64,000 bases of DNA, from the NCBI GenBank assembly GCA_016748015.1, contig JAAOMT010000134.1:1-64000 (forward strand), written 5' to 3'. Below, piece by piece: positions 6,100-60,801 of this stretch (position 1 is its first letter; the number at the start of each line of letters is the position of its first letter). Under the pieces are notes generated by a model. That model was not told where the DNA came from. It searched no databases and saw nothing but the letters and a program-made list of their open reading frames with translations. A program made the position numbers and the translations under genes. This DNA is from Geosiphon pyriformis uo1 (Eukaryota; Fungi; Glomeromycota).

Positions 6100-7060
6100 T
6101 GTTACCAGAAGTTTTTGGTCTCTTCTTGTATGTTTGTTGTAATGCTGTTAATTCACAGCTATGGGAAGTGTTTGAACCTCTGATACTGAATTTTATCTTC
6201 AAATTATCTCCTATAATTTGAACCGCTGGGCTTATAAGTGGAATGGCCAATTCTGTGCCAGTTACTTGTGTAGTTACATTATAGTAAACATCAACTTTTT
6301 CCCAGGAATTGCTCGTCTGGAAGCTCACTAAAAATGTGTAGTTACTTTGCTGTGAAAGTCAACTCTTCTACAGGAATCTTGTCTATAGACTACCCTAATG
6401 ATTGTAAAAAGAAAAGAAAAGAAAAATAAAAAAAATATAAAAGAAATAGGATTTTATTAAGGGAAACGTTTTCTATCTAGGCCTGGAATCACTAACAGTT
6501 TACTGAAATTGGTAGCTAATCAATTTTGAAATGTTAGTTGGGTTTTGGAGATTTTTCAAGTACAATAATTAAAAAAATTTGGTTTTTCGAATTATTTGAT
6601 ATTTTTTTTTTTGTGTGTATAGGAATGGTTTTAAGAGATAAATCTAAAGTAAGATACATTTTCTCAAAGAGAGAAGCTCTTCTTTTATACAACTTGTTGT
6701 AACACTATTCTATAAACTTGAACTTTGCTATTTTCTATAATTTTGCTGAACTAAAGATACATTTTGGTAAACTACAAGTTATTTCTGTGAGCTATTAGAT
6801 ATTTTGGTAAACTATCAATTATTTCGGCAAATTCCTACAAATTTTGGCAAACTTTTTGAATGTTACATAGTTTGGGGTATTGTATGATTGATCATTGTAA
6901 TTAGGTTATATTTGTGTTATGTACAAATTGAGTTATTAATTAAATGATAATTTTGGATATTTTGCTAATGTAATAAGTGATAATTTGAAATGCAAATTAA
7001 TAATAAAAATTATAAAGGTAATTTCATGCTAAGCAATATCTCTAATTTTGTCTGGTAACA
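6100..7060 (-). repeat. 3' LTR of B
   Basis: Matches the split 5' LTR. Preceded on the minus strand by PPT aaggaggaggtta. Confidence 0.95.
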
Positions 7061-7706
7061 TAACCTCCTCCTTAAGACTGAGCTCCATTAAAGTCCAAGT
7101 ACTGTCTGTAATTTCCAGATAGTAATCCAAGATTATTGAAGAAATTTGGTCTGAAAATTTTTGAAATTCCAGTTCTGTAAGCTTTCTAATATATTGAATC
7201 TTCAAGGATTGTAAAATTGGGTTTTGTAGGATGTTTTCACAGGTATGAAATAGGTCATAAAGTCTAAGAGCAGCTCTTAGTTTATAATAACTGTTTGTAG
7301 GTTCAGCTGTTGTCTTGAATTTGTTATAGAGTTGTTTCCAAATAGCTTCTTTTGTGAGATTTGCTGCTGTAAGCTCCCATTTTTGTTCGTGAAGTGTTTT
7401 TCCAATGTAGAAATATCTATATATTGGAGTATAGTCATAGTTTTCTTCATTAAAACACAGTTGAAGTTTTTGTTGAATAGTAGCATTTGGTGGAATACTA
7501 ATAGGAGTGAGCATTAAGTTTTCTCTTAAAGCAAGCTTTAAAAGTTTTGGCAGGTGAATTCCAGAATAACTTCTTGTATTCTTCTTATATGAGTGATATT
7601 TTCATGAATTTGGGACTAAATTTGTAATTACTTCTGTTTGGGTATAATTAATGTGGTTTCCAGTAACAGTAATAGATAATTCGGGTATTGTTTTTAAAGC
7701 TAACAT
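7029..7706 (-). pseudogene. B ORF3, ~220-aa protein of unknown function downstream of integrase
   Basis: ATG MLALKTIPELSIT at 7706. Homologous to A 32509-33174 and C 16041-16700. Confidence 0.75.
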
Positions 7707-7868: not shown

Positions 7869-9251
7869 TTAAGTGTTCAAGTTGGGAGGTTGTTTAATAA
7901 CAATGATTGGTTTTAAATTTCGAAGAATATTTTTGGGATTGATTAAAGAAGAATGACCAATTTGTAAAATTAATGGTTCAGAATTGTTTTTGGAATTATA
8001 GTGTTTCAAACAATCTCCATGTGCAACTTTTGCTAGGATTTTGTCATCAAGTCTTAGCTTGTATGATCCATTGCCTAGAACTTTATGAATAAAGAATGGT
8101 CCATCCCATTTATTTTCAAATTTCCCACTCCATTGTTTTTTAGCTTTAGTTCTGTGTAAGAGAACTTTGTTTCCAATTTTAAATTTATTGGTGACTGGTG
8201 GCAATTTGTTGTCATGCCATTCTTTTTGTTAAGCTTGGAAGTATTCAATATGGGTGGCTGCTATTCATCATTTTCCTTCTAGTGTGCTAAGCAGAGTGTA
8301 GGCTCTTCATTGAAATGTTTTCTGGAAATTGTTTTTATTGATTGGTTGTGCTGGGTATGTTTCTACTGTGAAATTAATTGATAATGTTGCTGTCCTTCTG
8401 TAAGTTAAATCAAATGGTGTGTGTTTTGTGGTATCTTGTTTTAGTGTCCTATATGCTAGTAACACTGATGGAATAAAAATATCTCATTCTTGCTCAAAAT
8501 CAGTTGAGACTTTGGCTAATAATTCACACAGTGTCCTATTAAAACGTTTCACAAGCCCATTTGTTTATGGATGGTAGGGCGAAGATAATAGTCTCTTAAC
8601 ATTAAATCATTCACAAATTTCCTGGATTAAATTGTTCACAAAATGTGTTCCTTGATCAGATAAAAGTTCTATTGAGCATCCATGTCTACAAATGATGTTT
8701 TCGTAGATAAAGTTTGCTACTAATTTTGCATCTGCTCGTTGAATGGCTTTGGCTTTAGACCATTTGGTGAGATAGTCTACAGCTACTGCAATATAATGGT
8801 TTCCTTGATTTGTGATAGGTAGTGGTCCAACTAAATTGATACCAACTTGGTCAAAAGGCTGTCCAACTTTGATTGGATTTAAAGATTCTGTAGGGCGTGT
8901 TCCTCCTCTTCTTTGACAACTATCACAAGAGTCAACATATTAATGTATGTCTCTTCTTATTTGGGGCCAAAAGTAGTGTTTTAATGTTCTTTGGGTGGTA
9001 TTATCTTTTTCTAAATGTGCTGATGAAGGATCTGAGTGCATGTTGTATAAGATAGTTTCTTTTTCATGTTCTTGTATTAATTAGAGTGATTTGTTTGGAT
9101 TTCTGGAGTTTTGATAATAAATGATGTTGTTGTGTAGGAAGTATTGTTTGGCTTGTTGTTGTAACCAATGTTTTTCATTTGGGGACCAATCTGTTGGGAT
9201 TGTTAATGTCTCCAAATATTGTTTAAGATTGTTGTAGTTTTCGGGGTTCAT
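7869..9251 (-). pseudogene. B integrase (separate ORF: HHCC, DDE core, GPF/SH3-like C-terminus)
   Basis: Starts MNPENYNN. Contains H..H..CDSC, IDLVGPL, SDQGTHF, GLVKRFN and WDGPFFIHKVLGNGSYKL. 461 codons with internal stops. Confidence 0.88.
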
Positions 9252-9300
9252 TGTTTGTCGTTTTGTTGCTGTTATTTCAAATGGGTGTTGGTTTTGTGTT

Positions 9301-10560
9301 CTAATCTTGTCTCATTCTTGAGAGACAATCAATGTTGGTGTGGAGTTTTCCTGGTTTATGGTGTACAATATATCAGTAGTTGGCTAAAAATCCTGTCCAT
9401 TGGGTTTGTTTGATGTTCAGCTGAGTGTTTTTGTTCTGAAGCCATTTGAGTCCAATATTATCAGTGATAATATTAAATTCCTTTGGCCAGAGATAAAGAT
9501 TGAAATGATGTAGGGCCCAAATTACAGCTGCTGTTTCCAATTCAGTGGCAGGGTAATTTTTTTCAGCTGGTTTTAATGTTCTGCTGGCATAAGCAATTAC
9601 TCACTCATTTCCTTGGTTATTTAATTGTGACAAAATGGCACCAAAAGCAGTATAAGAAGCATTAGTGGCTAGTCAAAACCGGTTATTGAAGTCTGGGTAG
9701 GCAAGAATTGGAGCTGTTGTCAGCTTTTCTTTGAGAATTTTAAAAGCTTTTTGGTGTTCGGTAGTCCATTTGTATTCAACATTTTTGGTGGTGAGCTGGT
9801 TGAAGGGTTTTGCAATTTTCGAGAATCCTTTAATAAACTTCCGATAGTAGAATGCTAATCCGATAAATCCTCTTAGTTCTGTGGTATTTCGAGGAGTTTT
9901 GAAATTTTTGACAGTGCTGATTTTTCTGGGATCAGGTTTAATTCTATCTTTGCTAACAATGTGACCAAAAAAAGCCAAACTTGTTTTTCCGAAGTAGCAT
10001 TTTTTGATGTTCAGTTTCAATCCTGCTTTCCGTAATCATTGAAAAACTTCTCGCAGGTGTTTTAAGTGTAGTTTAAAAGATGGTGAATAAACATCAGTAT
10101 CATTGAGATAGACAACTACTGATTTCCAAAGAAGGCCTTTGTAAACAACATCCATGAGTCTTTGGTGTATTGCATAATCTGAAAGGCATTATGTTGAACT
10201 CATAGTTTTTTTTTTGAATGGTAAATGCTGTTTTGGGGTGATCTTTGGGATCTATGACAACTTGCCAGTATTCACTCTCTAAATCTAATGTCAAGAAGTA
10301 TTTGGACTTCCCAAGGGCATCTAACATGTTATTGATTCAGAAAAGAGAGTAGGCATCTCTAATGGTGATGCTGTTAAGTTGTCGATAATCAACACAAAAT
10401 CGTATTTTTCCATTTTTCTTTTTAACTAGGACCACAGGTGAAGCCCATGGACTCATTGATGGTTGAATAAGCCCATTGTTAAGCATTCATTGCACTTCTT
10501 CTTGGATAAATTAATGACTTTCTGGAGCAACTCAGTAGGCTTGTTGTCGCCTTGGTTTGG
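9301..10560 (-). pseudogene. pol: B reverse transcriptase and RNase H
   Basis: [23 protein letters not shown], mutated YLDD, LRGFIGLA.YYRKFI, TNAS, ELETAA. Ends SRMRQD*. Confidence 0.9.
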
Positions 10561-11560: not shown

Positions 11561-11669
11561 TAAGACAGACTGATTTTTGATAAGATAGATGGGTGTTGTT
11601 TCAATTTCTTCTGTTGCTTCCAGTTCTCCAAATTCAATTTTGTTCTCATCACTTTCACTGGGCAAGAGG

Positions 11670-12310
11670 ATACTAAGAGCATAGCATTCAGGACACCACT
11701 GTTCATCACAAGGCATAATGCATTCTTCACATAGCCTAATGTTCATTTGCTCTAATCATTGAATTTAAGCTTCTTGGATTGGGTAGATGTGACTTGCAAT
11801 TTGGTGGTAGACTTCTACTTTATCTTTATAATCAAATCCAGCTAATTCCATGGTGTATTCAATGTATTCTGCTTCCTTTATTTGATGGACATCTTCTTTG
11901 GTAGCTCCATTAATTAATGCCATTGCTAGGTCAAAAATCATCTCAGCATCATGGAAGTAGTGATAAAGTTTGTTGAGAGCACTGTTGTATGCCGCATTAA
12001 AGGGTGTTTCTCTTTTTACTTTTTCTGAAATTAATAAAGCATATTGGCAGGTCTGATTGCAGACTCCTCCTCTTATTGCTATGTTAATTCAATTGCATTC
12101 TTCCGGTAGCATATCTCCACAAGTCAAACAAGAGGTGTTGTCCCATTTTCCGCTTCTTTTTATTAGATGACCCCATTGTTCTTTGTGGCAAGCCTTGCAG
12201 TAATAACAAGTATGATTTTCATATTCTTCTTTAGGTGAAATGCAGGCTCCCATTGATGAGAGTTTCTTGTGGCAATCTTTGCATTTGAGTGGAATGTAAG
12301 GGCATTGTTT
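11670..12310 (-). pseudogene. B Cys-rich (multi-CxxC) domain between protease and dUTPase
   Basis: CKDC...CYYCKAC...CLTC...VCNQTC...CEECIMPCDEQWCPEC, in frame with PR and dUTPase. Confidence 0.7.
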
Positions 12311-12529
12311 TCATGGTTCTGGTTTTGAATAAGAAATATTCCATCCAGTTGTCACTGGTTTTTTTGTTTCAAAAGAATCATTTGTTGAAAAGTATTGTTG
12401 TTCAGTTTCATCAGCCCAATTGGAGATTGATCCAAGTGCCATAAATGTTTCAATGATGGGTTTTTCTTCTGGTTCGAATTCAAAAGCTGGGGCTTTTCCA
12501 GAGCATTTGTTGAATGTACCACAAGTAGC

Positions 12530-12890
12530 AGGTACTTGGGCATGTTGTTCTTGATAGGAGAGTTGTAATTCTTGGGTTTTCCAGTCTAATTTTGCATTGG
12601 CTTTTTGAAACCAATCATTTCCGATAAGGGCTTGATACTGGGATGCGTCCATTACAAGAACTTTAACTAGAATAGTAATTTCATTTAGAGTAAATGGAAA
12701 ATTGTCAATTTCTCCTACTGGAGTCTTTTTCATGCCATCAGCAGTAACGATTACTGTCTGAGCTGGTCGATCAACATTTCTCTTTAACTGTTGCATCAAT
12801 TGGTAGGTAATGATGCTTCCGGCAGATCCACTGTTTAGGATCAAGTGAATTGTCTTTCCTTCAACTTCTGCTTCAGTGTACATAGCAGTG
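12530..12890 (-). pseudogene. B aspartic protease
   Basis: LIL(D>N)SGSAGSII and ALIGNDWF. Confidence 0.88.
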
Positions 12891-13199
12891 ATTGCTTTTT
12901 GTTTATTGGCGGCTGCATTGATAAGCAGGAATGATGACTTATTTGCTTTGAACTCAAAAGGGAATATATCTGAAAGGTTGGCATTTTTAGCAATTCTGGC
13001 TGGTGGGATTGTGGTAGGAGTATAAGAAGAGTTTTGTTGTCATGCTGCAGCTCTACCTTCCGAAAGTGCAGTATAGTGAAAATCTTGTTTTTCAGGTATT
13101 ATAAGATAGCTAGATTGAGTATGATAATGAGAAGGTTTTGGTTGAGCTGGATTTCAGAGAACTAATTGGTTATTTGGGTTGATTCTGTTGTTGTTTATT

Positions 13200-14919
13200 G
13201 CAAATCAGTTTTATGGTGCAAATTGGTATTGTTGAACCAATCTTCAAGCAGGTACTTGGTAATAGTGAATGGATTGTCGATACTGTTGTTGCATTGGTTG
13301 TAGAGCAGGTTGATAGTAGTCAGTTTAATATTGTGGTCTTGGTGGATAGTAAGCTGGTAGTAGTGGTGGTTGGTAATAAGATTGTTGTGGCAAAGAGTAA
13401 TGTTGATTACTCTTGTTTTGTTGGTCTCATTGTAGCTTTTTGCAATCTCTTTTCCAGTGGCCAGGGATTCCACAGTAATGGCAATTCTGAGGCTGGTTAT
13501 TAGAGGATGATATGAAGTTGTTTTGATTCCATCTTTGGGGTAGTTAATATCTTTGGGGTTGCTGTTGTTGTTGGTTGGTAAAATAGTTTTTGACTTTTTT
13601 TGTGAGTTGGTCAATTTTCTCTTCAGCTGCTGAGCTGGTCTTTCCAATGGCTAAGTTCATGAGTTTTGTACAATTGGCTTCTTCCATAGCCATTTCATAT
13701 CTTTTTGCTTGCTAAATAACAGAGTTTAAATCTTCTGGGACATGTGAGCAAATCTTTTTAATCAGTTTATCCTTTAAACCAGTGATAAATTGATTTAAGA
13801 TTTGAGCATCGGAATAATAATCATTAGTTTTAAGTTGGTGAATTTGTCTGAAAAGTTTGTTGAATTTCCCAATATAAGTTATAACAGATTCGGAAGGTTC
13901 TTGTTTGATATTGTGAAAATGATTTCGAAGTGTGATTGAAGTGTTGTTATCGGTAAATTGTTCTAAGAAGGCAGTTTTGAAAGCTGTCTAGTTATTAAAA
14001 GGGGTGGTCAAGTTTTCGAACCATTCGCCTGCTGTTCCTTTAAGAAAGTAAAAAATTGTTCTTAACATTCTGGCAGCATTCCATCCATTTGCATCTCCAG
14101 CTTTAATAACTTGGTTAAGCCATTCTTGGGGACTGGTCTCAATGTCTTCTCCATTAAATTCAGGGATTTTTGCAATATATGCTATCATTTTGTCTTCTTT
14201 GTTTTTACTGTCTATTGATTCTTCTTCAGATATTTCAGAGTCATTTTCTTTGTTCACTGCTGTCTCAGAGTGTTCACTTCAATTTTTAGCTAGAAAGTCA
14301 AGGAGATTGAAACTAGTTTGAAGGGGTTCTTGTTGTCTGGTAGAACTTTTGGGTAATGTAAAATCTTCTAGTCTTGCAAATCGATTTAAGAGTGAATTAG
14401 GTGTTTGTGCTTGTACAAGTGAAGCTAAAAAAGGTGTGATAGTAAGTGGAAGTTTTGAACTGGTTCCTTGTTCAGGTGTTTGTAAGTGTTTGACAGTTGT
14501 TTTTGGTAGTATTGAAATATTTAGGGTGGTTTTTGAGTATTGCTTCAATTTTTGTTTGCCTTTGTTGCTTGTTTCTGCCTCTGATTCAAAATCAATAGAG
14601 TATTGAGACTGCACTGGATATGTTTCTTTATAGTACTTGATAATATTAAAATTAAGTTCTTGAAAGTAAGTGGCAAGTGTTTTACTGTTAAGATCTTTGG
14701 TTCCCAACTGTGAATAGTGTACTAAATTATTGTAAAGATTGCTTCTAACTTCTGAGATATTGTAATTTCCAAAAAATAATTGTTGATGTGGTTTTTAATG
14801 TATTGGTATACTGATTTTTTGACAACTTCAATTCTATCTGGAATGTTGAATCTTTGCTTACAGTGGGTGTAAATTGACTGGTAATACTCTAGAGTTGTTG
14901 TGTCTGGTGTGGTCGCCAC
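13200..14919 (-). pseudogene. gag: B gag (N-terminal extension, capsid, CCHC knuckle, Q/P-rich tail)
   Basis: IAKIPEFNGED..QEWL, FLKGTAGEWF, KQEPSESV and CHYCGIPGHWKRDC. Confidence 0.85.
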
Positions 14920-14964
14920 TTTGAAGTTGTTTTTGCTGTGTTGTTTCTGTGGGAAAGCACCAAA

Positions 14965-15156
14965 TGTTACCAGAGGTTTTTGGTCTTTTCTTGTATGTTT
15001 GTTGTAATGCTGTTAATTCATGGCTATGAGAAGTGTTTAAACCTCTGATACTGAATTTTATTTTCAAATTATCTCCTATAATTTGAACTGCTGAACTTAT
15101 AAGTGGAATGGCCAATTCTGTGCCAGTTATTTGTGTAGTTACATTGTAGTAAACGT
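14965..15156 (-). repeat. 5' LTR of B, U5-side piece
   Basis: Matches 6100-6291. Cut by element C. Confidence 0.9.
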
Positions 15157-16027
15157 TGTTACAGATGATTATTTCTGCTGTTGAATTAAATAACAACCTG
15201 TAACTTGGTGCTTAAAAGCTACTTCCATGGATGAGGTTTTGCAAAATGTTGTATCTGAAGGTTTTTATAAAATTCTTTGTATAATGGACAGAGATTTAAT
15301 AGTGTTAATAGTAGGTGTATCTTTCTAAGAATTTTCCCAATTTCTTTCTTAGCATGGTGGCCAGATTTAATCTGGCAGTTGTGCTCTTCTGGTAAGCTAT
15401 CCAATAATATATATAAAATCCTACCCTTATTTCTGGGTCTTTTACCAGGCTATCCTTGATGTCAATAACTCAGTGCTTAATCCTTTTTTCAATTAGTATA
15501 CACAATAATTAAATCAAATAAAATAAAGAAAAGAAATAAAAGAAAATAAAAAAAGAAAATAAATAAGTCCGGGCAGTTTGGCAGATTAGTATTCCGTTAA
15601 TAGCTGTGATCAAGAGCTATTGTTCTAGTATAGTTAAGTATTAATTACAATCAACATGAAGTGTTAATAGTGGAGAGTGGATTGAGATGTGGAATAATTA
15701 TTTATTTGATGATTTTGTTTTTTGGCTAAGTATTCTGTGGTATCAATTCTGTCTTTTCTATTTCTAACACTACCGCTATATATACATAATTGGGATTCCT
15801 TAATTCCTTGATTCTTCATGACAGGAATCCTGGAATTCCTGGAATCTTGCGATTCCTTTAAGAGGAATTCTGGAATTTTGGAATCTTGCAATTCCTTGTC
15901 AGAGAATCCTGAAATTTCTGGAATCCTGCAATTTCTGAGAGGAATCCTGGAATTCCACATTTACTATGCTTACTTCTGATTGGCTAATAAGTATGCTAAT
16001 ATATTTCTTATATTTCTATAAGTAACA
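15157..16027 (-). repeat. 3' LTR of C
   Basis: TGTTACA...GTAACA, direct repeat of 24450-25264, with extra GGAAT(T/C)CT repeats. Confidence 0.95.
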
Positions 16028-16040
16028 TTATTCCCTCTTT

Positions 16041-16700
16041 TTAATATTGAGTTCCATCAAAATCCAACTCATGTAATTCCCCCTCTTGAAGTATTTCCTG
16101 GATTTTGTTTTTGAGAATTACTTGTGTTATTTGGGTCTGTAATTCTTCAAATTGAGCATTGGTGATTTTTTCCAATTGATTACTGGTAACCATATCTATT
16201 GCTTTGTTGAGCAATATTTCTGGTTTATCCTGAAATGCTGTGTGTATTCGGTATATGGCTCGAGCTTGTGTGGATAAGTTGTTCTTTCCCACAAAATGTT
16301 CTAATTGTTGTAGTATTCTTTTGTCAAATAATCGCTTTGTTTTATCCATATATAGATTCTGGATATTTACGTGTTGTCCCAAGTAAAAATAACAATAGTT
16401 TTGTGGAAATTGTTGTATCCACTAATTCCAAGTTTCTTTAGTCAATTCTTGATATAATGACTCTTTTGTCAATTCTTTTATTGCTAATTTTATTTTCACC
16501 ATGATTTTGTCCACCATATTTTTAGTTTTCTTCAGTGTTCTGAGTTGTAATGTCTTTCTAGTATCTTGATATTAAATGGTTTGTTAATTGATTGTAATTT
16601 CTATTTTCTGGTGTTGGATTAATTAAAAGAGTTGTTGTGCTAGTGTGTGAATGTTGTCTGTAATTTCCATTTTTCTGATATTTCCTGTCGCGTCTACCAT
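16041..16700 (-). pseudogene. C ORF3, unknown function
   Basis: The ATG at 16700 is in frame with ORF 16041-16382. IEITIN, NYCYFYLG and RAIYRI align to the A/B ORF3. Confidence 0.7.
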
Positions 16701-16724
16701 GTCTTTATATATTTTTTTGATTGA

Positions 16725-18107
16725 TCAATTTAATATGTTGTTGTTAATAAGAACAATTGGTTCCAGATCTTGTGGAATCTCCTCTGGTCGGACTAGTATT
16801 CTCTGTACTCCTAATTGTGGAATATTACTGGTAAATGGTAGTATAATATCACGATATGGCTTCAGTCAATCTCTATGCACTGCTTTGGTTAAAATTTTGT
16901 TATCCAATCTTAATTTGTAAGCTTCATTTTCTAGAATTTCTTCTATGTGAAATGGTCCGTCCCATTTGGGGTCAAATTTTCCACTCCACTGTTTTTCTAC
17001 TTTGGTACGATGTAGTAATACTTTGTCTCCAATCTTGAATTCAACTGGTTTGTCTAGTAGTTGACTATTATGTCTTTTTTTCTGTTTTTTTTGTGACTTT
17101 TGAATATTATTAGCTGCTTTTTTTCGTTTGTTTTCCAATGTTTTTATTAAGTCATATGTTCTTCTTAGCAATGTTTCTTGAAAATTTTCTTCTGTTATTG
17201 GTTCAGCTGGATATGTATTAATTTTTCTCTCTACTGGTAACATTGCTGTTCTCCTATATACTAATTCAAATGGTGTTGTTTGTGTAGTATCTTGTTTCAT
17301 TGTCCGATAAGCAAATAGTACTGATGATATGAACAAATCCCAATTGTTCTGGTTTTTTTGGCTGAGCTTAGCTATTGCTTCACACAGTATTCTATTGAAT
17401 CTTTCTACTAATCCGTTGGTTTGTGGATGGTATGGTAATGATAATGATCTCTTGATTCCAAATCTTTGGCTCAATTCTGTTAATGTTCTGTTCACAAAAT
17501 GAGTTCTTTGGTCTGATAATAATTTTTTTGGACATCCATGTCAACAAATCAAATCCTGATGAACAAATTTGGCAACGGATTCTGCATCTGCTCTTTGAAT
17601 TGCTTTTGCCTCTGGCCATTTAGTGAGATAGTCCATGGCTACTACTATGTATCTGTTTCCTCTGCTGGTAATTGTTAATGGTCTGACTAAATCAATTCCA
17701 ATACGGTCAAATGGTTGTCCCACTTTGATTGGTCTTAATGGTTTACTGGGTCTTGTTCCTCCTTTTTGCTGACAAGCATCACAATTTTGAACATATTGAA
17801 TGATGTCTGGGTACATTGATGGCCAATAGTATCTCTTTCTGGTTCTTTCCATGGTTGCTTCTTTGTGAAAATGTCCTGCTGTTGGATTTGAATGCATGTT
17901 GAATAATATTGTCTCTTTTTCTGGCTCCGTAATTACTCTGGTTGGTTGATCTGGATCCTTTCTATTTTTTTGATAAAGTATATTTTGGTGAGTGATAAAA
18001 TATTTTGATTGTTGTTTGATACTTTTTTGTTTTGTTTGAGATAAATTCTCCTTGAACTGTTGAGTGTTTATATAATGTTGCAATTGTTGATATTTTTGTA
18101 TGTTCAT
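16725..18107 (-). pseudogene. C integrase (separate ORF)
   Basis: MNIQKYQQ..., HSNPTAGH..CDAC, IGIDLV, YHPQTNGLVERFN and WDGPF. 461 codons. Confidence 0.9.
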
Positions 18108-18168
18108 CTTTTGTTGTATTTTTCATTGCTATTGTTCTGGTTTTGTTATATTTTGGGTTGAAATGTTC

Positions 18169-19440
18169 TTAGATTTGTCTCATTCATGATAAACCGTCCA
18201 TATTTCCATTGTCTTTTCCTTTTTTATAATATATAGTATACTTATATGGTGCGAGTGCCATTTTCCATCTTAACTGTCTTCCATCTCCAAATTTTTGTTT
18301 TTAAAGTGATGTTAATCCTTTGTTATCTGTGTACACTTCAAACTTCTGGCTCAAATATTCTTTCCATTTCATAACTGACTAGTATATTGCTAAGTGTTCT
18401 TTTTCCAGTGTTCCATAGTTCTTTTTGGCTGGTATTAAATCTCTGCTGGCATATGCCACTGGATGTTCTTTGCTATCTGATTCTCTCTAAGATAGTACTG
18501 CTTCTAATGCCTGGCCTGATGCATCCATGGTAATGATGAATGGTTTGCTGTAATCTGAATAGATCAGTACTGGAGCTTGTATAAGCTTTCTTTTTAGAAT
18601 ATCAAAAGCTTCTTGTTGACTTTCAGTCCATTCATATTTTGTATCTTTGTTTTGCAGTTGGTTAAGTGGCTGTGCTATCTTGGAAAAGTTCTTAATAAAA
18701 CATTGATAGTAGCTGGCAAATCCCAAGAATGATTTCAGTTCTGTTATATTGGTCAGCACTGGAAAGTTTTTTACTATCTCTATTTTCTCTGGATCCGTTT
18801 TGATGCCATCTTTGCTGACTATGTGTCCCAAGAATTTTAGTTCTATCTTGCCGAAGAAGCACTTTGTTGCATTTAACTTTAGTCCTGTTCTTCTTAGTCT
18901 TTTGAACACTTGTTGAAGATGATGAAGATGATCATCAAACATTTTTGAGAATACATTGGTGTTGTCTAAGTATACAATTACTGATTTCCACAATAAACCA
19001 GTATAAACAATTTTCATTAGCCGCTGGAAAGTTGCTGGGGCATTGGTTAAGCCAAATAGCATTACTTCAAATTCGAAATTCCCTTCTCTAGTAGTAAATG
19101 CCATCTTCTCTTTGTCAGCTGAATTCATGGTTACTTGCCAGTAACCACAGTCCAAATCTAATGTTAAGAACTATTTGTTCCCACCGAAAGCATCAAATAA
19201 TTCCTGTATTCGTGGAGTTGGATAACTGTCTCCTCAAGTTATACCATTGAGTTTCCTGTAGTCTACACAAAACCGGATTTTTCCATTCTTCTTATGGACG
19301 AGTACCACTGGTGATGACCATAGGCTCATTGATGATTGAATTAGCCCATTGTTAAACATTCTGTTTATCTCTTGATGAATGATCTCATGGCTGGCTGGCG
19401 GCATTCTATATGCTCTTTGTTTGATTGGCATTGCATCTCC
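18169..19440 (-). pseudogene. pol: C reverse transcriptase and RNase H
   Basis: RFCVDYRKLN, GYWQV, FGLTNAPATFQR, YLDN (from YLDD) and MDAS. Ends LS(R)MRQI*. Confidence 0.92.
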
Positions 19441-19999
19441 AGTCTTGATCTGATGCTGGATGATGTCAGTTCAGCCAAACTCATTTTCGCTGGCAAAGAT
19501 ATTGTTGAAATTGTTGAGTAATATCTTAAGCTGCATATATTGGAGTGGATCTAAGTTTCCCATGTTCATTTGTTCCAATTGTTCTGGTTGGAGCAAATAA
19601 CATTCGTCTCGTCCATAGATTGGTTGTAATGTAATGTCAACATATTCACAAAGTTGTGAAAAGTCTGGAATGGGGTTGGGTGGTTGGTCTTCTATTTCTG
19701 TGGTTAAATATCCGATGGTGGTTTCTTCTGGTATGTTAATGACATTGCCAGTGTTGTTGTAGATGGAAATTTTTATGCTGCTATAGCTTTTGGCTTGTAT
19801 GTGGAGATTGATCAACCCAATTTCTCCTGATTCACAAAGGTTTGCTTTAGCTTCAAAAATTTGTCCTTGCTCCTTTTCTTTCTTTCCTATTGCTAACATG
19901 TACTGGCTATATGGTAGAATAGAAATAGCTTGACCAGTTGAGATAATTTCTTCTTGGCCAACAATTTCTTCCTCTGCCATATTGACTGGTACATCTATT

Positions 20000-20420
20000 C
20001 TACTCGTTAATCCAAATCTTTGTATTCCTCTCACTGTTATTCCTAATTCCTCCCTCTTTCCCACTGACATTAACTGAGCTACTCTAACCAGAGGCAGGAA
20101 TATTGCCTGTGCTATCTTTTTGTTGGGCTCTATTATATAGGCCTTTTCGGAGTCATTTTGTAGCATGACAATGATATTTCCCATGTATCTCGCGTCTATT
20201 ATTCCTCTTTTTATATTGATCCTTTTTTTTGCTAAACTACTTCTAGATGCTAATTGAACCATTGTTGTTGCTGGAATTTCTAGTGCTATTTTCAGATCAA
20301 TGCAGGTGCGTGAATGTGGTTCCAATTTGATGGCCTCTTTTTCTGGATATCTCAGATCAAACTCTGCATCCGTATTATGCACACATTCTGGCATAATACC
20401 TTCCCCATTGTTACTATATC
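20000..20420 (-). pseudogene. dut: C dUTPase domain
   Basis: DA(G>E)FDL, ASRSSLA, GIIDARYMG, KIAQAI and RGIQRFG. Confidence 0.9.
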
Positions 20421-20669
20421 ATTTCAACTCTTGTTCCTTGGAAAGATCTAGTAATGCAATGTATTGTTCATAGTTTAAATTGGAGTTTGAATCTGAGTTG
20501 GAATCAATATTGTTGTTGTCGCCATATTGAACGGAGCTGGGACTGGTGTTTTCATTGTCATCATTGTCAGAGTTTGAATTGGGATTGAAAATTGATTCCG
20601 ATTCTAATGCATATCTGCTGATTGGTTTTTCCTTTTCAAGGATTGTATAGATCATGCATAGTGGTGGAT

Positions 20670-21300
20670 TGTAAATGAGGTCACACTTATCACAATACTG
20701 AAAGTCACAGGAAATTAGGCAGTGTTGACATAGTTGAGCATTTAACTGCTCTAACCATTGTTCTTGTTCTTCTCTTGTGGGTGCTAATTTTTGGTAGTGT
20801 TCGTAGAATTGTTCCGGATCCAGGAGATTTATGATGAGTTCTGCATCCCAGTCAAGTTCTAAAGATTCTGGGGGGTTGTCTTTGATTGTTTTTATTTCCT
20901 CAGGTGATGCCTCTTCAATTTTGGCAAGTGCCATTCGCCAAATCTTGTTGTTGTCATGGGGACAACTGTCCAGTCGCTGTACAGCTCTTCTCTAGGCTGC
21001 TTTTATTGGGGTTCCTTTCCTTACCCAGTTGCTTATTAGAATCGTGTATTGACATGATACGTCGTATGTTCTTCTATGTTCTAGGATGTTGTTCCACATC
21101 TTTTCATCCAGAAGAGTTTCTCTACAGGCTATACATGGCATATTATCCCATTTTTCCATTCATTTTGGTCTTTCAAAACATTTGATATGACATGCGCAGC
21201 AATAGAACTTGGTTGCCATCTGATATTTTTCATCGTCACCACAGCATGCACCCATTGATGACAATTTCTTGCCGCAATCAATGCATATCAGTTTGGGTCA
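20670..21300 (-). pseudogene. C Cys-rich (multi-CxxC) domain
   Basis: CIDCGKKLSSMGAC...CCAC...KWDN.PCIAC...CQY...CQHCLISCDFQYCDKC, homologous to the B domain. Confidence 0.7.
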
Positions 21301-21649
21301 GCAATAGGTTGATGGTTGTTGTTGACTGTAGGTGTATGGGATATAAACATTGTTGGCTTGAGTGTTTTTTTCCTCTCTCTCTTTCCCTTTTTCTTTTTTT
21401 TCTTTGTTTTCTTCCCATTTCCAGCTTAAAGTTGGTTCGCTCTCATCGTTGTTGGTCCAGGTCAAGTCATCAGTTTCCCAGGTAAGTTCTTCCTTTTGTT
21501 TCTCTTTTTCATTGTCATTGTCATTCCAGGGGAGTATTGGTGGCAGTTTGTTGTGCTCTTCATTAGTCCACGACACTTGGTAGGCTTCCCAGGTAGGTTT
21601 TTCTTTCTCCTCCTCTAGTTCAATTAATAGTTTCTCTCTTGGAGGAGTC

Positions 21650-22030
21650 TTGAAGTGGCCACACGTGGCTGGTACACGTATGTGTTGGCCTTAATGTGTT
21701 AGTTGAAGTTCCTGAGTGTTCCAGTCTAACATCGTGTTGACTTTGAATAGCCAGTCATTACCAACAAGAGCTTGGTATTGAGTGGCTTCCATTACTAGAA
21801 CTTTAATGGGAGTCACGATGTCATTGATTTTGAAAGGAAAGTCATCGATTTCACTGATTGGAGTTTTGGTCACTCCATCAGCTGTGATGATTTTGGCACT
21901 GGCAGTTTAATCAACTCGGCAACCTAATTGGTCCATGAGTTGCCATGTGATAATACTGCCTACTGAACCACTGTCAAGAATAAATTTGATGGATTGTCCC
22001 TCGACTTTGGCATCAGTGTACATTGTGGTA
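21650..22030 (-). pseudogene. C aspartic protease
   Basis: FILDSGSVGSII and QALVGNDWL. Confidence 0.9.
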
Positions 22031-22599
22031 ATTGGTTTGGCTTCAAGAGCGGCTTCACTAAATAATAGCATTGCAGCTGTTTCCTTGAATTCAAATGAGA
22101 AGATAGCAGCCAAGGACTTGTTTTCGGTGATAATAGCAGGTGGAATATTACTGGTGAGTGGTTGTTTTTGGGTAAATGCCAAGTTATTGGTTGAGGCGTC
22201 TTCTGGGGTGACCAAGAGACTTAAATAGTTCTGGGAATTCGGGCTCTGGGTTTGACCAGTACCCGAATTCCACTGGCGTAATCCAGATGATTGCTGTGAA
22301 AAACTGGAGATTAGTTGATGGACTATTATTGCCAATCTCCAGCTCTGTTGAGTCATTCTCGGTCTTTGGGTTCTATTGGATGGTAAGCTTTGGGGTGGTG
22401 TTTGGATTTGGGGTTGATAGATTATTTGTGGCTGCAGTTGTAGATAAATCACTTGTGGCTGTGGTTGATAGATTAAAGCTTGGTATACCAGAGACTAATA
22501 GATGGATGACTGCATCACTGGTAGATAAGTGGATTGGTTTTGATTTGGGTACTGATTTGGAGTTTAGAACAGACAATTGGGGTTTTGATATTGATTTCT

Positions 22600-24387
22600 T
22601 GATCATTGGTTATTTAAACGCTGATGACAGTCAATTTGGATGTGTTTTTGTTTACCACAATAGTAGCAGATACACATTTCTTGTTGCCACCATTAATTGG
22701 TTGATAAAGATGGCCGTGGCTAATTTTGGGCATGATTAAAGTTTCCTTGATTATTGCGTCATTGTGGAGGCTGATAAATGGCATGATTGTCAGCTAAGTA
22801 TCTTTCCAATCTCTTATTAATTGATTCACTGAATTTCTCCAATTTGGAATCCAATTCAGATGATCCGTTTATTATTAGATTAACAGCTTGGGTGTGGTTA
22901 GCCTCTGACTCAGCGGATTCAAAATCTCTGGCATGTGTAACTGCATTTTGAAGGGTACCTAGATGCAACGGACGTACATGTTGCAAGATGCTGCTGTGCA
23001 GGCCACAGATAAACTGATTGAGTATCTGTGGTGCTGTGAAATAGTTGGCATCAATTGCTTGAATTTGGTGTAGGTTTCAATGGAAGCGTCCCAGGTAAGT
23101 AGTAACTGCTTCAGTTTCTCCTTGTTTCATGGTGGTGAATGCATTGACTAGGCAATTGATGCTGTTATTGTTGCTGAAGTATCTTAGGAATTTCGCTTTG
23201 AAGTCATTAAAATCTTGTGGTTTATTAATCAAGCTCTGGTACCATAAATTGGCAGTGTCCTTGAGAAAGTAGGGAATGGCTTACATTGCTCAAGCATCAT
23301 TTCATCTGTTGGCTGCGATGGCCTTTTCTATATCATTCAACCATACTTGAGCATTATCCTCTTTGCCAGTAAAGTTGTCAAGTTTTGCGATTGGTGCGTA
23401 GGCCATTGGATTTAAGTTAGGTGGTTGTGGTGGCTGTTGAAGCAGTTGTTGTTGTACTGGTTGTTGGGGTGGTAGTTGAAGTGGCTGCTGTATGAGTTCG
23501 GCTATGAAATTAATTGGTGGTTGACTGATGACAATTACTGGAGGTAAGTTTTGTTGATTAATTAATTCAGAGTTTGGATTGTTTTGCCTTTGATGATTCG
23601 GAGTTTTGATTTCTGAATTTTCTAGATCTGGATTTTGCTGAGTTTGAAAATTCAGGGTTTCAACTTCCCAGTTTTCAGTGATCGGGCACTGGTAAGTGAA
23701 TTCTTGATCTTCTGATTCTTTTTCCTCTTTTTCTGATTCTGCTGCTTCCCACGGATCAGAGATTCCAAAATCTGGTGGAAGCAGTGGTAATCAAAGTCCT
23801 GATGGAGTTGATGATCGCGAATTAAATCCCTCAAAGTATTCGCCATATGGTCCTAACAATTCTGTTTTTCTTTGTCTACTTTGGAATGGGAATCATCCAA
23901 ATGCTAATGTCACAGTTGATAAGAATGCATCTGTTGATAATATGTTGATGGTGCTTCTAGGTGTATAGTAGTAGAATGGGTTGCCTGGGGATTCAACTCT
24001 GTTTTTCTTCCAAGCAGGTGGCTGTATTTTTCTGGGTGTTACTGCTGGTGTTTGTAATTTTCTCTTGCCTTTACTAGTGTATGTAATTGGATATCTTTGT
24101 TGAGTGTGATGTTCAATTTCTTTGTTGATCTTAATGATGATAGATACAAAATTATGATTTGTTAGTAGATTGGTGTTTTGAATTAATTTTTTATAGAAAG
24201 TTTCTCTTGCTGATTCAGTATTCACTGGTGTTCCTAATAAAGAGAAAATCTTTTCATTGACATAGAAATTAAAGGCTGATTTGGCAGATATATAATTGTA
24301 GTTTAATTCCAAGTATTGACAATAGTGTTGAAATAAGAATTTTGCGAATCCTAAATAGTTTGCTCTTATATTTTCTGATTCTGCCAC
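22600..24387 (-). pseudogene. gag: C gag (N-terminal extension, capsid, CCHC)
   Basis: MAYAPIAKLDNFTG, IPYFLKDTANLWY, ILNQFICGL and CYYCGKQKHIQIDC. Confidence 0.85.
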
Positions 24388-24431
24388 TTTTGGTTTGGTG
24401 TTGTCGGTGCTGGTTCTCTGTAAGATTATAT

Positions 24432-24447
24432 CTCACAGAGAGCACCA
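24432..24447 (-). promoter_or_regulatory. PBS of C, TGGTGCTCTCTGTGAG (complement of a tRNA 3' end ...CTCACAGAGAGCACCA, elongator tRNA-Met-like)
   Basis: Adjacent to the 5' LTR and identical in D. CTCAC is a T-stem typical of eukaryotic tRNA-Met(e). Confidence 0.75.
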
Positions 24448-24449
24448 AA

Positions 24450-25264
24450 TGTTACAGGTGATTATTTTTGCTGTTGAATTAAATAACAACCCATAACTTG
24501 GTGCTCAAAAGCTACTTCCATGGATGAGGTTCTGCAAAATGTTGTATCTGAAGGTTTTTATAGAGTCCTTTGTATAATGGACAGAGATTCAATAGTGTCA
24601 ATAGTAAGTGTATCTTTCCAAAAGTTTTCCCAATTTCTTTCTCAGCATGGTGGCCGGATTTAGTCTGACAGTCGTGCCCTTCTGGTAAGCTATTCAATAA
24701 TATATATAAAATCCTACCCTTATTTCTGGGTCTTTTACCAGACTATCCTTGATGTTAATAATTCAGTGCTTAATCCTTTTTTTAATTAGTATACACAACA
24801 ATCAAATCAAATAAAATAAAGAAAAGAAATAAAAAAAAATAAAGAAAGAAAATAAATAAGCCTGGGCAGTTCGGCAGATTAGTATTCTGTTAATAGCCGT
24901 GATTAAGAGCTATTGTTCCAGTGTGGTTAAGTATTAATTACTATCAACATGAAGTGTTGATAGTGGAGAGTGGATTGAGATGTGGAATAATTATTTATTT
25001 AATGATTTTGTTTCTTGGCTAAGTATTCTGTGATATTGATTCTGTCTTTTCTGTTTCTAACACTACTACTATATATACATAATTGAGATTCCTCAATTCC
25101 TTGATTTTTCACAACAGGAATCCTGCAATTTCTTGTCAAAGAATCCTGAAATTCCTGGAATCCTGCAATTCCTGAGAGGAATCCTGGAATTCCACATTTA
25201 CTATGCTTACTTCTGATTGACTAATAAGTATGCTAATATATTTCCTATATTTCTATGAATAACA
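24450..25264 (-). repeat. 5' LTR of C
   Basis: Direct repeat of 15157-16027. Confidence 0.95.
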
Positions 25265-29000: not shown

Positions 29001-30873
29001 AATGCAAGGTTTTGGTTCAACTGGATGATTTACAGTCCCAGTAAACATAGCTCTTAATACACAGAATAAATCTTACCAGATTTTTCAACTTTTCCAACCA
29101 ATTACCATTTCACTTTTTGGTAAACATTACGAAATTTACACTTGTTCAAAACCCATCACTACCCAACAAATCTTTAAATCCAATAAACAAATCTGTTTAA
29201 AGCATGAAATCTTAATCCCAAACATTTATATTCCCAAAGGAATGAAAAAATTTCAAGTTATATTCTACAACCCCAATAATTATCCTATTGTCTTATTGAA
29301 CAAATTGGAGATTGGAATTATACACAGTAATATCTTTCAAAATGAAAACTTTTAAATTGTCTTTGATTTCATCGAAATTATAAGATATACACTACTTCCA
29401 AATCCAAACATCATTCTTACTACTAAAAACTACCATCTTTTGGAAGAAAAACTCTCTAGAATCAACATGAGTCTCTTAAAACCCCAACAACAAAGACAAT
29501 TAAAACAGCTAATAGCTGAATTTGCAGATATTTTTGCAAAAAACAACAATGATCTTGAAAAAACTAATATTGTTCAACATCAAATCCACACAGGAGATGC
29601 TCTGCCAAAATGACAACAAGCCTATCGAGTTCCACCTGCTAGCCACCAGTTTATCAGAGAAGAGGTTCAAAGAATGCTCAATAACAAATTGATTTAACCA
29701 TCAAGAAGTCCTTGGGTCTCATCAATAATACTTATTAAAAAGAAAAACAGAAAAATCAGATTCTGTGTAAATTACTATCAGCTCAACAGCATAACAATTG
29801 AAGATGCCTATTTTCTTCCAAGAATTGATAATATGTTGGATGCCTTAGGAAAAGCCAAGTTCTTCTCAACTTTGGACTTGGAAAGTAGATACTGACAAGT
29901 TGAAATGGACCCAAAAGATCGACCCAAAACAGCATTCACCACTCAAGGAGGGAATTATGAGTTCAATGTTATGCTTTTTAAACTTTGCAATACACCAGCA
30001 ACATTCCAACAACTCATAGATGTTGTATATAAAGGACTCTTATGGCAATCAGTAGTTGTTTATCTTAATAACACTAATGTATACTTACCAAGCTTTAAAG
30101 CCTATCTTATCTACCTGCAAGAAGTTTTTCAATGATTATGAAAAGCAGGATTGAAGTTGAACATTAAGAAATATTACTTTGAAAAAACAAGCTTAATTTT
30201 TCTTGAACACATTATCAGCAAAGATGGAGTCAAACCAAATTCTAGAACAATCAGTGCTGTCAAAAACTTCCAAACACCCAAAAATACCACAGAGCTGTGA
30301 GGATTTGTAGGATTAGCCTCATATTATCAGAAATTTATTAAAGGATTTTTAGAAATTGCTAAACCACTCAATTATCTCATCAACAAAAATGTGTCATACA
30401 AATGGACTGAAAAACAACAGAAAGCTTTTGAAATTCTTAAAACAAAACTAACAACAGCTTTAGTTCTTGCTTACCCAGACTTTAACAAATGATTTCAACT
30501 AATCACTAATGCTTCACACATAGCATTTGGTGCTATTCTATCACAATTAGATGAAAATGGCTAGAAACAAGTCATTGTCTATGCTAATAAAATACTCAAA
30601 TCAACAAAACTCAAATATGGTTCAACTGAATTAGAAGCTGCTGCAGTCATTTGGGCTTTTAAACATTTTCAACAATATCTGAAGAATGGAAAAGAATTTG
30701 ACATTATAACTAACAATATTGGCCTTAAATAGCTCAATAAAAAGAAAACTGAACAAAGTACCAAACAGTCTCGATGGAATAACTTCCTAGCAGATTACAA
30801 ATATATTGTATACTACAAACCAGGAAAATTACACACAAATGTTAATAGTCTCTTCAGAATGAGACAAGATTAA
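26038..30873 (+). pseudogene. pol: A ORF1 remainder: capsid, CCHC, protease (~27290-27670), CxxC domain (~27860-28500), dUTPase (~28600-29030), RT, RNase H
   Basis: CYYCGIPRHWKQDC, LILDSG, VIDAGYTE..QGFGSTG, KTAFTT..PATFQ. Ends RMRQD* at 30871-30873. Confidence 0.9.
28600..29030 (+). pseudogene. dut: A dUTPase domain
   Basis: DAEYDF, ASRLSLA, GVIDAGYT, KIVQAI and QGFGSTG. Confidence 0.88.
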
Positions 30874-30929
30874 TAACACCAACAAATCGACTATAACTTA
30901 CCAACCTACCAACAAATAATAAAGCAACA

Positions 30930-32315
30930 ATAAATTCCAGAAATTACAACAATTTTAAAAACTATTTGGAGACTCTTATCATACCAGAAAATTAGTTCCC
31001 AAGTAAAAAACATCGATTACAACACCAATCCAAACAATATTTTATACACCACAACAAAATCTATTACAAAAATCACAGAAATCCAAACCAACTACTCAGA
31101 TTAATACAAGAGAATGAAAAAGAAACAATTCTATACAACATACACACAGATCTTTCTTCAGCACATTTGGGAAGAGATGGAACAATTCAAAGAACTCTTA
31201 AACATTATTTTTGGCCTTACATGCAAAAAGACATTCAACAATATGTAGAATCTTGTGATAGTTGTCAAAAAAGAGAAGGAACTCATCCCACAGAATCTTT
31301 AAATCCAATCAAAGTTGGACAATCTTTTGACAGAGTTGAAATTGATTTAGTCAGACCATTATCTATCACAACCCAAGGAAATCATTATATTGCAGTTGCA
31401 GTAGATTATCTTATCAAATGGCCTAAAGCTAGAGCCATCCAAAAAGCAGATGCAAAATTAGTAGCAAATTTCATCTATGAAAACATTATTTGTAGATATA
31501 GATGCCCAATTGAACTTTTATCTGATTAAGGAACACATTTTGTAAACAACTTAATACAAGAAATTTGTGAATGATTCAATGTCAAAAGACTTTTATCATC
31601 ATCTTATTACCCTCAAACAAATAGACTTGTAGAACATTTCAACAGAACATTGTGTGAATCTTTAGCCAAAGTTTCAACAGATTTTAAACAAGAATGGGAT
31701 ATCTTTATTTCATTAGTGTTATTAGTATACAAAACACTAAAACAAGTTACTATAAAACACACACTATTTGATCTTACTTATGGAAGGACAGCAATATTAC
31801 CAATTAATTTCACAGTAGAAACATACCCAGTACAACCAATTAATAAAGAAAACTTTCAAGAAACACTCCAAAGAAGAGCCTACACTCTCCTTAGTACATT
31901 GGAAGGAAAAAGACACATAGCAGCCTCTCATATTGAATACTTTCAAGCCTTACAAAAAGAAAAGCATGACAACAAACTGTTACTAATTACTAACGAATTT
32001 AAGATTGGAAATAAAGTTTTCTTACACAGAACTAAGGCTAAAAAACAATGGAGTGGAAAATTTGAACATAAATAGGATGGACCATTTTATATTCACAAAA
32101 TTTTAGGCAATGGATTATACAAGTTAAGACTTGATAACAAAGTACTAGCAAAAGTTGCACATGGAAATAGATTAAAACACTATCATTCCAGAAACAATCC
32201 TAAACCATTAATTCCACAAATTGGTAAATATTCTTCTTTAGTTAATCCTAAAAATATTCCCCGAAATTTAGAACCAATAATTATAATTGAACAACAACCA
32301 AACTTGAACACTTAA
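30930..32315 (+). pseudogene. A integrase (separate ORF, start decayed to ATA)
   Basis: Collinear with B integrase, with HHCC, DDE and GPF. 462 codons in one frame. Confidence 0.88.
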
Positions 32316-32508: not shown

Positions 32509-33174
32509 ATGTTAGCCTTAAAAACACTTCCTGACTTATCCATAACGATTAATGGAAGTCAAATTAATTACATTCAGAAAGAAAACACAGCTCCAATAGT
32601 AAATAATTCTCAAAACTATCATTCCTATAGAAAAAAAGCAAAAGGTCACTTTGAAAATAGGTTACCAGAACTTTTGAAGCAAGCACTAAAAGAAAACCTT
32701 TTAATTGCTTCTATTGACATTCCACCAAATGCCACAATACAACAAAAACTTCTACTATTTCTTAATAAACAGAACAATAAACATACTCTTATATATAGAT
32801 ATTTTCATATTGGAAAAACACTTTATGAACGAAAACTGGAATTTAAAGCAACCAATATCACTTCTGAGGCTATATGAAAACGAATTCACAATGAATTCAA
32901 GACAGCAGCTAGACCAACAAACACTTGTTACAAACTTAGAGCAGCATTTAGACTTTATAATTTATTCAATACTTGTAAAAACGTCTTACAAAATTCAATA
33001 CTCCATTCAATGAAGATTCAATATATTGAAAAGCTTACAAAACTGAAATTTCAACAATTTTCAGACCAGATTACTTCAATTATCTTGGACCATTATCTTA
33101 ACATCACAGATAGTGCTTGAACTTCGACAGAGCTCAGTCTTGAGGAGGAAATTATGTTACCAGTAGAATTTTAG
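32509..33174 (+). pseudogene. A ORF3, unknown function
   Basis: MLALKTLPDLSITING...YRYFHIGKTLYERK...LRAAFRLY. Confidence 0.75.
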
Positions 33175-34113
33175 CTATTAATTAGCACAAAATTACCCTT
33201 ATAATTCCTATTATCAATTAGCATATAGTATCATTATTTCGATTATCACTTATTATTTAATCAAATTATCAAATATCATTACTTAATCAATAATCTGATT
33301 TGTACTTTAGAAATTAAGATGATCAAATTACACAATACCCTAAACTATTTAATATAGTCAAAATTTGCCGAAATTAATGAAAATTGGCCGAAATAATCAA
33401 ATAGTTCAGTAAAATAACTTGTAGTTTGCTGAAATGTATCTTTAGTTCACCCAAATTATAGCAAAGAGAAAAGTGCAAGTTCAAAGACTAGTACTACAAC
33501 AAGTTGTATAAAAGAAAAGCTTCTCTTTTCAAAAAAATGTATCTTTTCATAGTATCTTACCATAGCATTCTACCTTAGATATCTTAATTGAAACAAATCA
33601 CTTTTTATACATTCAAATAAAAATTAAATATTTGAAAAACAAATCCTTAAAATTATTACACTTGAAATTCCCTCAACACAACTAACGTTTTGAAATTGAT
33701 TAGCTACCAATTTCAATAAATTGTTAATGACTCCAGGCCTGGATAGAAAACGTTTTTCTTGATAAAATTCTATTTCTTTTATTTTTCTTTTATTTTGTTA
33801 TCATAATTATTAGGGTAGTCTACAGATGAGATTCCTGTAGAAGAGTTGACTTTTACAGCAAAGTAACTATACATTTTTAGTGAACTTCCAGATGAGCAAT
33901 TCCTGGGAAAAAGTTGATATTTACTATAACATAACTACATAAAGTAATTGGCAAGAAATTGGCCATTCCACTCATAAGCCCAGTAGTTTAAATTATAGGA
34001 AATAATTTGAAAATAAAAGTTATTGGAGATCTAACTACTTCTTGAAAACGTGAATTTACAGCAAATCAACATTAATAACATTCAAAAAAAGAAACCAAAA
34101 ACCTCCAGTAACA
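33155..34113 (+). repeat. 3' LTR of A
   Basis: Direct repeat of 4276-5265, preceded by PPT gaggaggaa. Confidence 0.95.
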
Positions 34114-55705: not shown

Positions 55706-55766
55706 TTTGGTGCTCTTTGTGAAGTATAATCTTACAGAGAACCAGCACCAACAACCCCATCCAAAA

Positions 55767-60755: not shown

Positions 60756-60801
60756 TTTGGTGCTCTCTTATGGAAATAACACAACAACAACAAAATTCAA
60801 A

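Follow-up and report, generated by a model that had tools for sequence, protein, structure and literature searches.

The integrase (IN) of an LTR element is normally delivered as part of Pol, and the locus analyzed here raises the question of how IN is made when the polyprotein ends before it. The window (the whole stretch of 64,000 nucleotides) contains three such elements, and the earlier note on it had proposed that their IN is encoded apart from Pol. We conclude, at a probability of about 95%, that these elements belong to a lineage whose polyprotein terminates directly behind RNase H, with IN encoded by a gene of its own that has a separate start codon. What we count as established for this purpose is the LTR anatomy, the conserved stop, the conserved start of IN itself, the intact split relatives and a tree group without fused members. 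The wider statement, namely that this is a split lineage, that the window copies are its decayed, Gypsy-like fungal members and that their IN is made by restart across an A/C-rich spacer, stands at roughly even odds when taken as a whole.

Three nested LTR elements in the window

The window is AT-rich eukaryotic DNA, dense with decayed LTR elements. Three of these are complete and nested, with element C lying inside the 5' LTR of element B, and B inside element A:

4276-34113, plus strand: element A
4276-5265, plus strand: 5' LTR of A
33155..34113, plus strand: 3' LTR of A, 93.1% identity to its 5' LTR
4272-4275/34114-34117: target duplication of A, ACAG/ACAG
6100-26037, minus strand: element B
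about 14965-26037, minus strand: 5' LTR of B, interrupted by element C
6100..7060, minus strand: 3' LTR of B, 94.1% identity to its 5' LTR
6096-6099/26038-26041: target duplication of B, CCAT/CCAT
about 15157-25264, minus strand: element C
24450..25264, minus strand: 5' LTR of C, TGTTA..TAACA, then a PBS-like ttTGGTGCTC
15157..16027, minus strand: 3' LTR of C, preceded by a polypurine tract, 92.4% identity to its 5' LTR
15153-15156/25265-25268: target duplication of C, ACAT/ACGT
19471..20418, minus strand: dUTPase stretch of C between protease and reverse transcriptase (RT), in the frame of gag, protease and RT (PF00692, E 3e-20)
18172..19569, minus strand: RT and RNase H of C (RVT_1 and RT_RNaseH_2 matches)

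LTRs with TG..CA ends, a PBS-like TGGTGCT, a purine tract and a 4-bp target duplication are common to A, B and C, and from this combination it follows that each was integrated by an integrase. The duplicated sites are each compatible with a present or decayed central CpG, and a search for a priming tRNA found no tRNA gene in the window. The differences within LTR pairs are nearly all transitions (61 of 62 in element C) and the observed/expected ratio of CpG is only 0.13-0.31 in the window copies, which together indicate that these copies are dead through deamination.

The domain order protease, RT, RNase H, IN by which Ty3/Gypsy elements are recognized is present. A domain scan of an intact relative (L010) found Ty3_capsid, Retrotrans_gag and zf-CCHC, while two gag fragments from the window had no match to a gag family when scanned and share 21-25% identity with the gag of L010. 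Among named proteins, the nearest are those of mycorrhizal-type fungi, namely Geosiphon pyriformis (58-74% for a part of IN) and Rhizophagus, which makes a Glomeromycotina host likely. All three window copies (19471-20418, 11069-11755 and 28462-29028) and P0128 have a dUTPase between protease and RT; in P0138 it is instead placed after RNase H.

Elsewhere in the window, 54856-59012 and 59775-64000 hold two further LTR elements, both partial, that are related to C and B, with no IN match in either of them within the window. There is also a tandem array of 87-nt units at 48218-49204, and decayed ORFs that by eye resemble pieces of non-LTR retrotransposon RT and RNase H at 36348-41213 (minus strand), 45885-46364 and 50674-54640.

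A stop after RNase H and a separate integrase frame

The junction between RNase H and IN has the same layout in the three elements:

18169..18171, minus strand: TAA of C, closing the Gag-protease-dUTPase-RT-RNase H frame
18108..18168, minus strand: 61-nt spacer of C, A/C-rich (59% A, 8% G), predicted unstructured (MFE 0)
16725..18107, minus strand: stand-alone IN frame of C from ATG 18107, with HHCC, DDE core and GPF motif; 2 premature stops
9252..9303, minus strand: TAG of B after RNase H (9303-9301) and 49-nt spacer without ATG
7869..9251, minus strand: stand-alone IN frame of B from ATG 9251; 9 premature stops
30871..30929, plus strand: TAA of A after RNase H (30871-30873) and 56-nt spacer without ATG
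30930..32315, plus strand: stand-alone IN frame of A, with ATA at the aligned start 30930; 4 premature stops

The earlier note had placed the RNase H end and its stop at the same point in A, B and C; its coordinates are correct, with each stop sitting four codons past the RNase H end motif H/N-x-N-x-D-x-L-S-R. The spacer lengths of 56, 49 and 61 nt (A, B and C) and the three IN starts that it gave were likewise confirmed, and the ATA of element A is likely a decayed ATG. Other parts of its argument stood only in part. The IN frames do have the proposed 461-462 codons, ending at codon 462 in A and 461 in B and C, but they are not open, given the premature stops listed above. The spacers shift the frame by +2 in A and +1 in B and C and are thus not multiples of three, as claimed, but this carries little weight, since the spacers of two relatives (L002 and L014) are in-frame. 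In element B the IN frame also overlaps the end of Pol by a few codons. Finally, the shared stop had been held to speak against random decay. Premature stops occur not only in IN but also in RT-RNase H (9 in A, 7 in C), so that the window alone could not exclude decay; the argument holds through the relatives described below.

At the junction of element C (18095-18195), 597 aligned contigs, under filters that can hide variants, show no alternative letter in the TAA. These contigs derive from one DNA run that is possibly the window's own source, and are hence not independent; 40 of 173 variants were listed. A form of the C spacer longer by one base makes up about 69% of the aligned depth in this single run. 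The spacer also contains an upstream out-of-frame ATG (18126-18124), at which about two thirds of the aligned depth of related copies has a non-ATG letter.

The split is conserved in intact relatives

We examined 80 metagenome and 79 genome-collection loci, which yielded 13 split junctions with both the upstream stop and the IN start. When the RNase H-IN junction was aligned across copies and relatives, as the earlier note had suggested, a stop followed by an ATG-started IN was found in all 13 of these non-window junctions (metagenome/MAG contigs). Their spacers measure -8, 30, 62, 63, 74, 82, 89, 110, 163, 278, 308, 365 and 727 nt and fall in all three frames. IN is full-length and free of stops in 11 of the 13 (L001, L002, L003, L006, L008, L010, L014, L020, L024, L030 and L085); in the remaining two it is cut by the contig end (L016) or damaged (L021). 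The Gag-Pol frame of L010 is open for 1479 codons and ends 62 nt before IN, whereas the upstream ORF of L006 comprises a tail domain only, its RNase H lying beyond the contig. Fused RNase H-IN frames do occur in more distant loci. The intact relatives retain the stop, and no conserved intron or frameshift restoring a fused Pol was found among 16 junctions (the 13 relatives plus the three window copies), so that neither of the two findings named beforehand as fatal to a separate IN, the other being an open RNase H-IN frame in young copies, materialized.

Protein searches agree with this layout. Among 108 matches of the N-terminal half of IN to proteins of 330-2000 aa, 104 are shorter than 500 aa and lack an RT domain, and the four long fused matches show 34-38% identity. 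By a strict pattern 69 of the 108 have Met at the aligned start, and many of the others were called from a later Met. A search with RT-RNase H gave 1597 matches; of these, 120 were listed, and the top ones, at 55-59% identity, end for the most part 1-13 residues past DALSR and include whole Gag-protease-RT-RNase H proteins of 1193-1321 aa. Rhizophagus irregularis has intact IN genes belonging to this group. RNase H and IN are joined in a single automatic gene model (P0089), which looks chimeric, as it runs on into unrelated gag sequence. Viral and prokaryotic genome collections contained distant matches and two contaminating split elements only. Fungal-type split elements (L085 and L086) sit on bacterial MAG contigs, apparently through contamination.

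Some relatives show further peculiarities of their own. An in-frame stop separates the protease-containing frame from the RT frame at a similar place in L008 (870-872), L021 (1585-1587) and L020 (3358-3360), and is possibly a readthrough site or a second split. In one subgroup (L010:3500-4441, L020, L085:2-943, P0153 and P0155) a tail of 250-590 residues follows RNase H in the usual place of IN; it is acidic, and Cys/His-rich in L010 and P0153. The long spacer of L030, an outlying split element, has two near-identical hairpin-like units of about 40 nt (1078-1230).

In a FastTree phylogeny of 158 RT-RNase H sequences, built without named reference elements or other families, A, B and C fall in a group of 62 rows (SH 0.989), of which 57 are stopped after RNase H, 5 are incomplete and none is fused. 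Among the 57, the stop comes within 18 residues in 53 and after tails of 160-586 residues in four. The 96 rows outside this group comprise 75 fused, 12 incomplete and 9 stopped ones, the last including L030, which has a split junction with its own ATG. In an IQ-TREE subsample of 62 rows picked from the FastTree, 29 of the 30 split rows cluster together (SH-aLRT 94) and P0138 lies outside. A single origin of the split is likely on the strength of these trees; it falls short of proof because L030, on a long branch, is not placed in the group by either tree and P0138 drops out of it in the subsample. The window copies group beside fused Gypsy-order Pols, and in a tree without named references their placement in Metaviridae is limited to that.

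These data bear directly on the reading that the stops arose by decay, through C-to-T hypermutation in dead copies. The heavy deamination of the window copies and their many premature stops would fit it, but the same stop closes Pol in intact relatives with open Gag-Pol and open IN, and none of the 62 grouped rows is fused; the 13 of 13 stop-then-ATG junctions together with this absence of fused rows exclude chance. We regard decay as already refuted by the intact relatives and give it the lowest standing of any explanation considered, next to none. The split trait is thus real and lineage-wide, and the core proposal of the earlier note holds: the stop and the separate start of IN are both ancestral traits, and cleavage of Pol cannot release IN. 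The contribution of the window is the long-spacer form of the split (49-61 nt).

How the separate integrase would be translated

The earlier note had left a choice between reinitiation, internal entry and a subgenomic or spliced RNA. We rank first a restart after the Pol stop, which is the likeliest route, though its probability falls a little short of one half and subgroups may differ. Ribosomes would terminate where the polyprotein ends, traverse the short A/C-rich spacer with a short scan and restart at the AUG of IN, in a termination-reinitiation of the kind used by LINE-1. IN would then stay with the RNA that made it and be packaged via RNA or Gag contact, like foamy virus Pol. As the earlier note argued, IN would require a separate route into the particle; alternatively, IN could meet the cDNA after the particle opens.

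The context of the IN starts supports independent initiation. The start is ATG in 25 of 28 cases and ATA in three, all of them decayed copies. A purine occupies -3 in 23 of 28 IN starts vs 97 of 164 internal ATGs, and G occupies +4 in 22 of 28 vs 48 of 164, the latter partly due to a conserved second residue; this amounts to a strong Kozak context. The last 60 nt before IN contain 5 ATGs against 20 expected (23 loci, P=0.0005), while over whole spacers there is no clear depletion (24 vs 31 expected, P=0.1). The window spacers, being short, A/C-rich and predicted to be unstructured, resemble the 63-nt spacer of LINE-1. Two overlaps point the same way, favoring restart: stop and start overlap in L021 as ATGGATAA, and the IN stop of L009 overlaps the next ORF as ATGA. 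In element C the stretches from gag to RT share one frame, so every translating ribosome would reach the stop, and even inefficient restart could then yield IN at a usefully low ratio. Against restart, 4 of 16 junctions (L008, L020, L030 and L085) have spacers of 278-727 nt holding 3-12 ATGs, which scanning ribosomes would have to pass, and stop and start overlap at only one junction in 16. The ATG-free zone before IN (median 112 nt) fits the 5' leader of a subgenomic RNA equally well.

Such an RNA is the main competitor of restart. Retroviral env and foamy virus pol are read from subgenomic RNAs, and IN might similarly have an mRNA of its own, produced from an internal promoter near the RNase H end or by splicing of a 5' donor to an acceptor before the IN AUG. 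We hold this possible, yet on balance unlikely. It would explain why the ATG-rich long spacers end in 82-151 ATG-free nt (L008, L020 and L030), would account for the strong Kozak context and free spacer length, and would make it easier to reach the third separate ORF that follows IN in most members. Splicing, however, finds no shared acceptor: there is no YAG from the stop to ATG+30 in L002 and L016, the only YAG of L014 is the stop codon itself, and copy A has none ahead of its start. The acceptor or start site may lie within RNase H, further upstream. The overlaps in L021 and, for the third ORF, in L009 are better explained by coupling than by extra RNAs.

Internal ribosome entry at the IN AUG could be mediated by a bulged stem-loop in one subgroup or by the A-rich unstructured leader in the window families. 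Ten loci (L010:4467-4503, L006, L009, L011, L017, L019, L023, L029, L086 and L005) have this stem-loop just before the IN ATG, at a distance of 3-40 nt. It consists of a bulge side G-U-G-A-A-A-G-C, a 6-bp stem and a CANNGUGA loop. In the eight loci aligned first, 96.9% of cells pair, two-sided changes occur in 5 of 8 pairs, and the covariation score was reached by none of 500 shuffles; the structure was read from the same sequences, which biases this comparison in favor of the stem-loop. We nevertheless consider internal entry improbable, as a search of the window and 32 further loci did not find the stem-loop (the best match in the window, E 0.76, lies away from any junction), and as it could equally tether ribosomes for restart or bind IN. 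Rfam gave no match at E<=1 in 18 loci, including 8 of the 10 with the stem-loop, and the pattern was absent from the viral contigs searched.

A fused Pol-IN might still be made by recoding (frameshift or readthrough) or through a small intron that removes the stop. The in-frame spacers of L002 and L014 and the overlap of the IN frame with the Pol end in B are compatible with recoding, and chance GT..AG pairs would yield open fusions in 7 of 16 junctions. Yet the spacers are spread over all three frames, in 14 of 16 junctions the IN frame is not open from the Pol stop to the ATG, and the sole slippery heptamer (L003) is not followed by an open IN frame. Likewise, a strong donor is lacking from the final 60 nt of Pol in all 16 junctions, and the possible fusions lie at differing positions. 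A fused product would give no reason to expect a conserved initiator Met, and we judge this route very improbable.

A further ORF after integrase

Most split elements, including A and B, carry a separate ORF after IN (ORF3):

7029..7514, minus strand: ORF3 of element B
32725..33105, plus strand: decayed ORF3 homologue of element A, span matched by the ORF3 profile (44.9 bits; A is not in the profile)

It also occurs in L001, L002, L003, L004, L006, L009, L010, L011, L027 and L085, with a length of about 120-175 aa, and was not seen in L008, L013 and L022; a candidate in element C did not score against the ORF3 profile. The family has 529 representatives at E<=0.001. Three members scanned had no Pfam match. 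Structure prediction gave a confident helical model (pLDDT 90.8), for which Foldseek found no match at E<=0.001 and the best structural match reached Z 4.9.

Relationship to known systems

With Ty3/Gypsy elements (Metaviridae; e.g. yeast Ty3) the lineage shares LTRs, PBS, polypurine tract, the order gag-protease-RT-RNase H-IN, an HHCC/DDE/GPY-F integrase, a Ty3-type capsid in an intact relative and an RT-RNase H grouping beside fused Pols. It differs at all 16 split junctions, where pol is closed behind RNase H and IN is given a start of its own; further differences are the additional ORF that usually follows IN and the dUTPase between protease and RT of the window copies. The ICTV profile of Metaviridae places integrase inside pol (PMC7879559), as does the accessible part of an account of canonical Ty3/Gypsy pol (PMC3248453). 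With IN outside pol, we file the elements as a Ty3/Gypsy-like variant and not as canonical members.

For restart, the closest parallels are non-LTR elements: in the available portion of PMC5972666, restart is described for LINE-1 over a spacer of 63 nt and for SART1 at an overlap. The likeness is a second cistron behind a stop, with a short spacer or an overlap, and reinitiation, described for those elements, is by analogy what we propose here; in contrast, their downstream cistron is an endonuclease-RT and there is no capsid to enter. The termination-reinitiation of caliciviruses and influenza B (TURBS) resembles L021 in its overlapping stop and start, with restart reported up to about 63 nt downstream (PMC5972666), but most spacers here do not overlap. 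We rejected a TURBS-type system, since the UGGGA core (TURBS motif 1) lies within 110 nt before the stop in 1 of 16 junctions and is missing in 15, and an overlap likewise occurs in one.

For delivery of IN, foamy viruses (Spumaretrovirinae) may serve as the nearest model, as their enzyme is also made apart from Gag. Their Pol, as far as the accessible text of PMC3705302 goes, is packaged through RNA signals (PES) and Gag contact, and only the PR-RT-IN precursor is packaged. The cut differs, however: foamy virus Pol is split from Gag and keeps IN, whereas here it falls between RNase H and IN.

Ginger elements are not known to carry gag, RT or LTRs and consist of an integrase-type transposase alone. 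Sections of two papers (PMC12440569, PMC5751038) describe Ginger1 DNA transposons as having a stand-alone Gypsy-type integrase with a GPY/F motif. Identity with Ginger1 was rejected, as RT-RNase H lies directly upstream of IN and LTRs flank the unit; annotation by integrase alone could nonetheless misfile IN genes of the split lineage as Ginger. Troyka is also an LTR element with the Gypsy domain order. According to the part of PMC12440569 that covers it, Troyka has CG..CG ends, 3-bp duplications and one Gag-Pol including IN, without GPY/F, and is confined to animals; with TG..CA ends, 4-bp duplications and a split IN in the window, it was rejected as a precedent. So were Odin, Kuafuorterviruses and DGLT-A/Tj1, which keep IN in Pol, and Tat elements, in which only an extra RNase H is separate and IN is in Pol. 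The literature that we searched, with Repbase Reports, most subscription papers and supplements outside its range, contained no account of an LTR retrotransposon with IN in an ORF of its own, nor did the accessible portions of two papers on mycorrhizal transposable elements (PMC11952901; 10.1101/2021.03.30.436303) describe a split IN.

Implications

A large and diverse lineage gave up Pol-fused IN and yet integrated, as the 4-bp duplications, nested copies and intact relatives attest; there must hence be another way to make, dose and deliver IN. One picture, quite unlikely to be right in all its parts, is that of a polycistronic lineage (Gag-Pol, IN and ORF3) in mycorrhizal-type fungi, in which IN would be translated on the genomic RNA and loaded into the particle in cis. 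Here the stem-loop might be a ribosome tether or an IN-binding site, ORF3 might be a translation helper or an IN adaptor, and the freeing of IN could have been a step towards stand-alone transposases of the Ginger type. The lineage also supplies natural sequences on which restart behind a very long ORF can be tested in fungi. According to the accessible text of PMC11952901, as much as 41% of a single mycorrhizal fungal genome is covered by LTR elements. The split affects annotation in these fungi, where split IN genes are named free-standing transposases and intact elements look broken.
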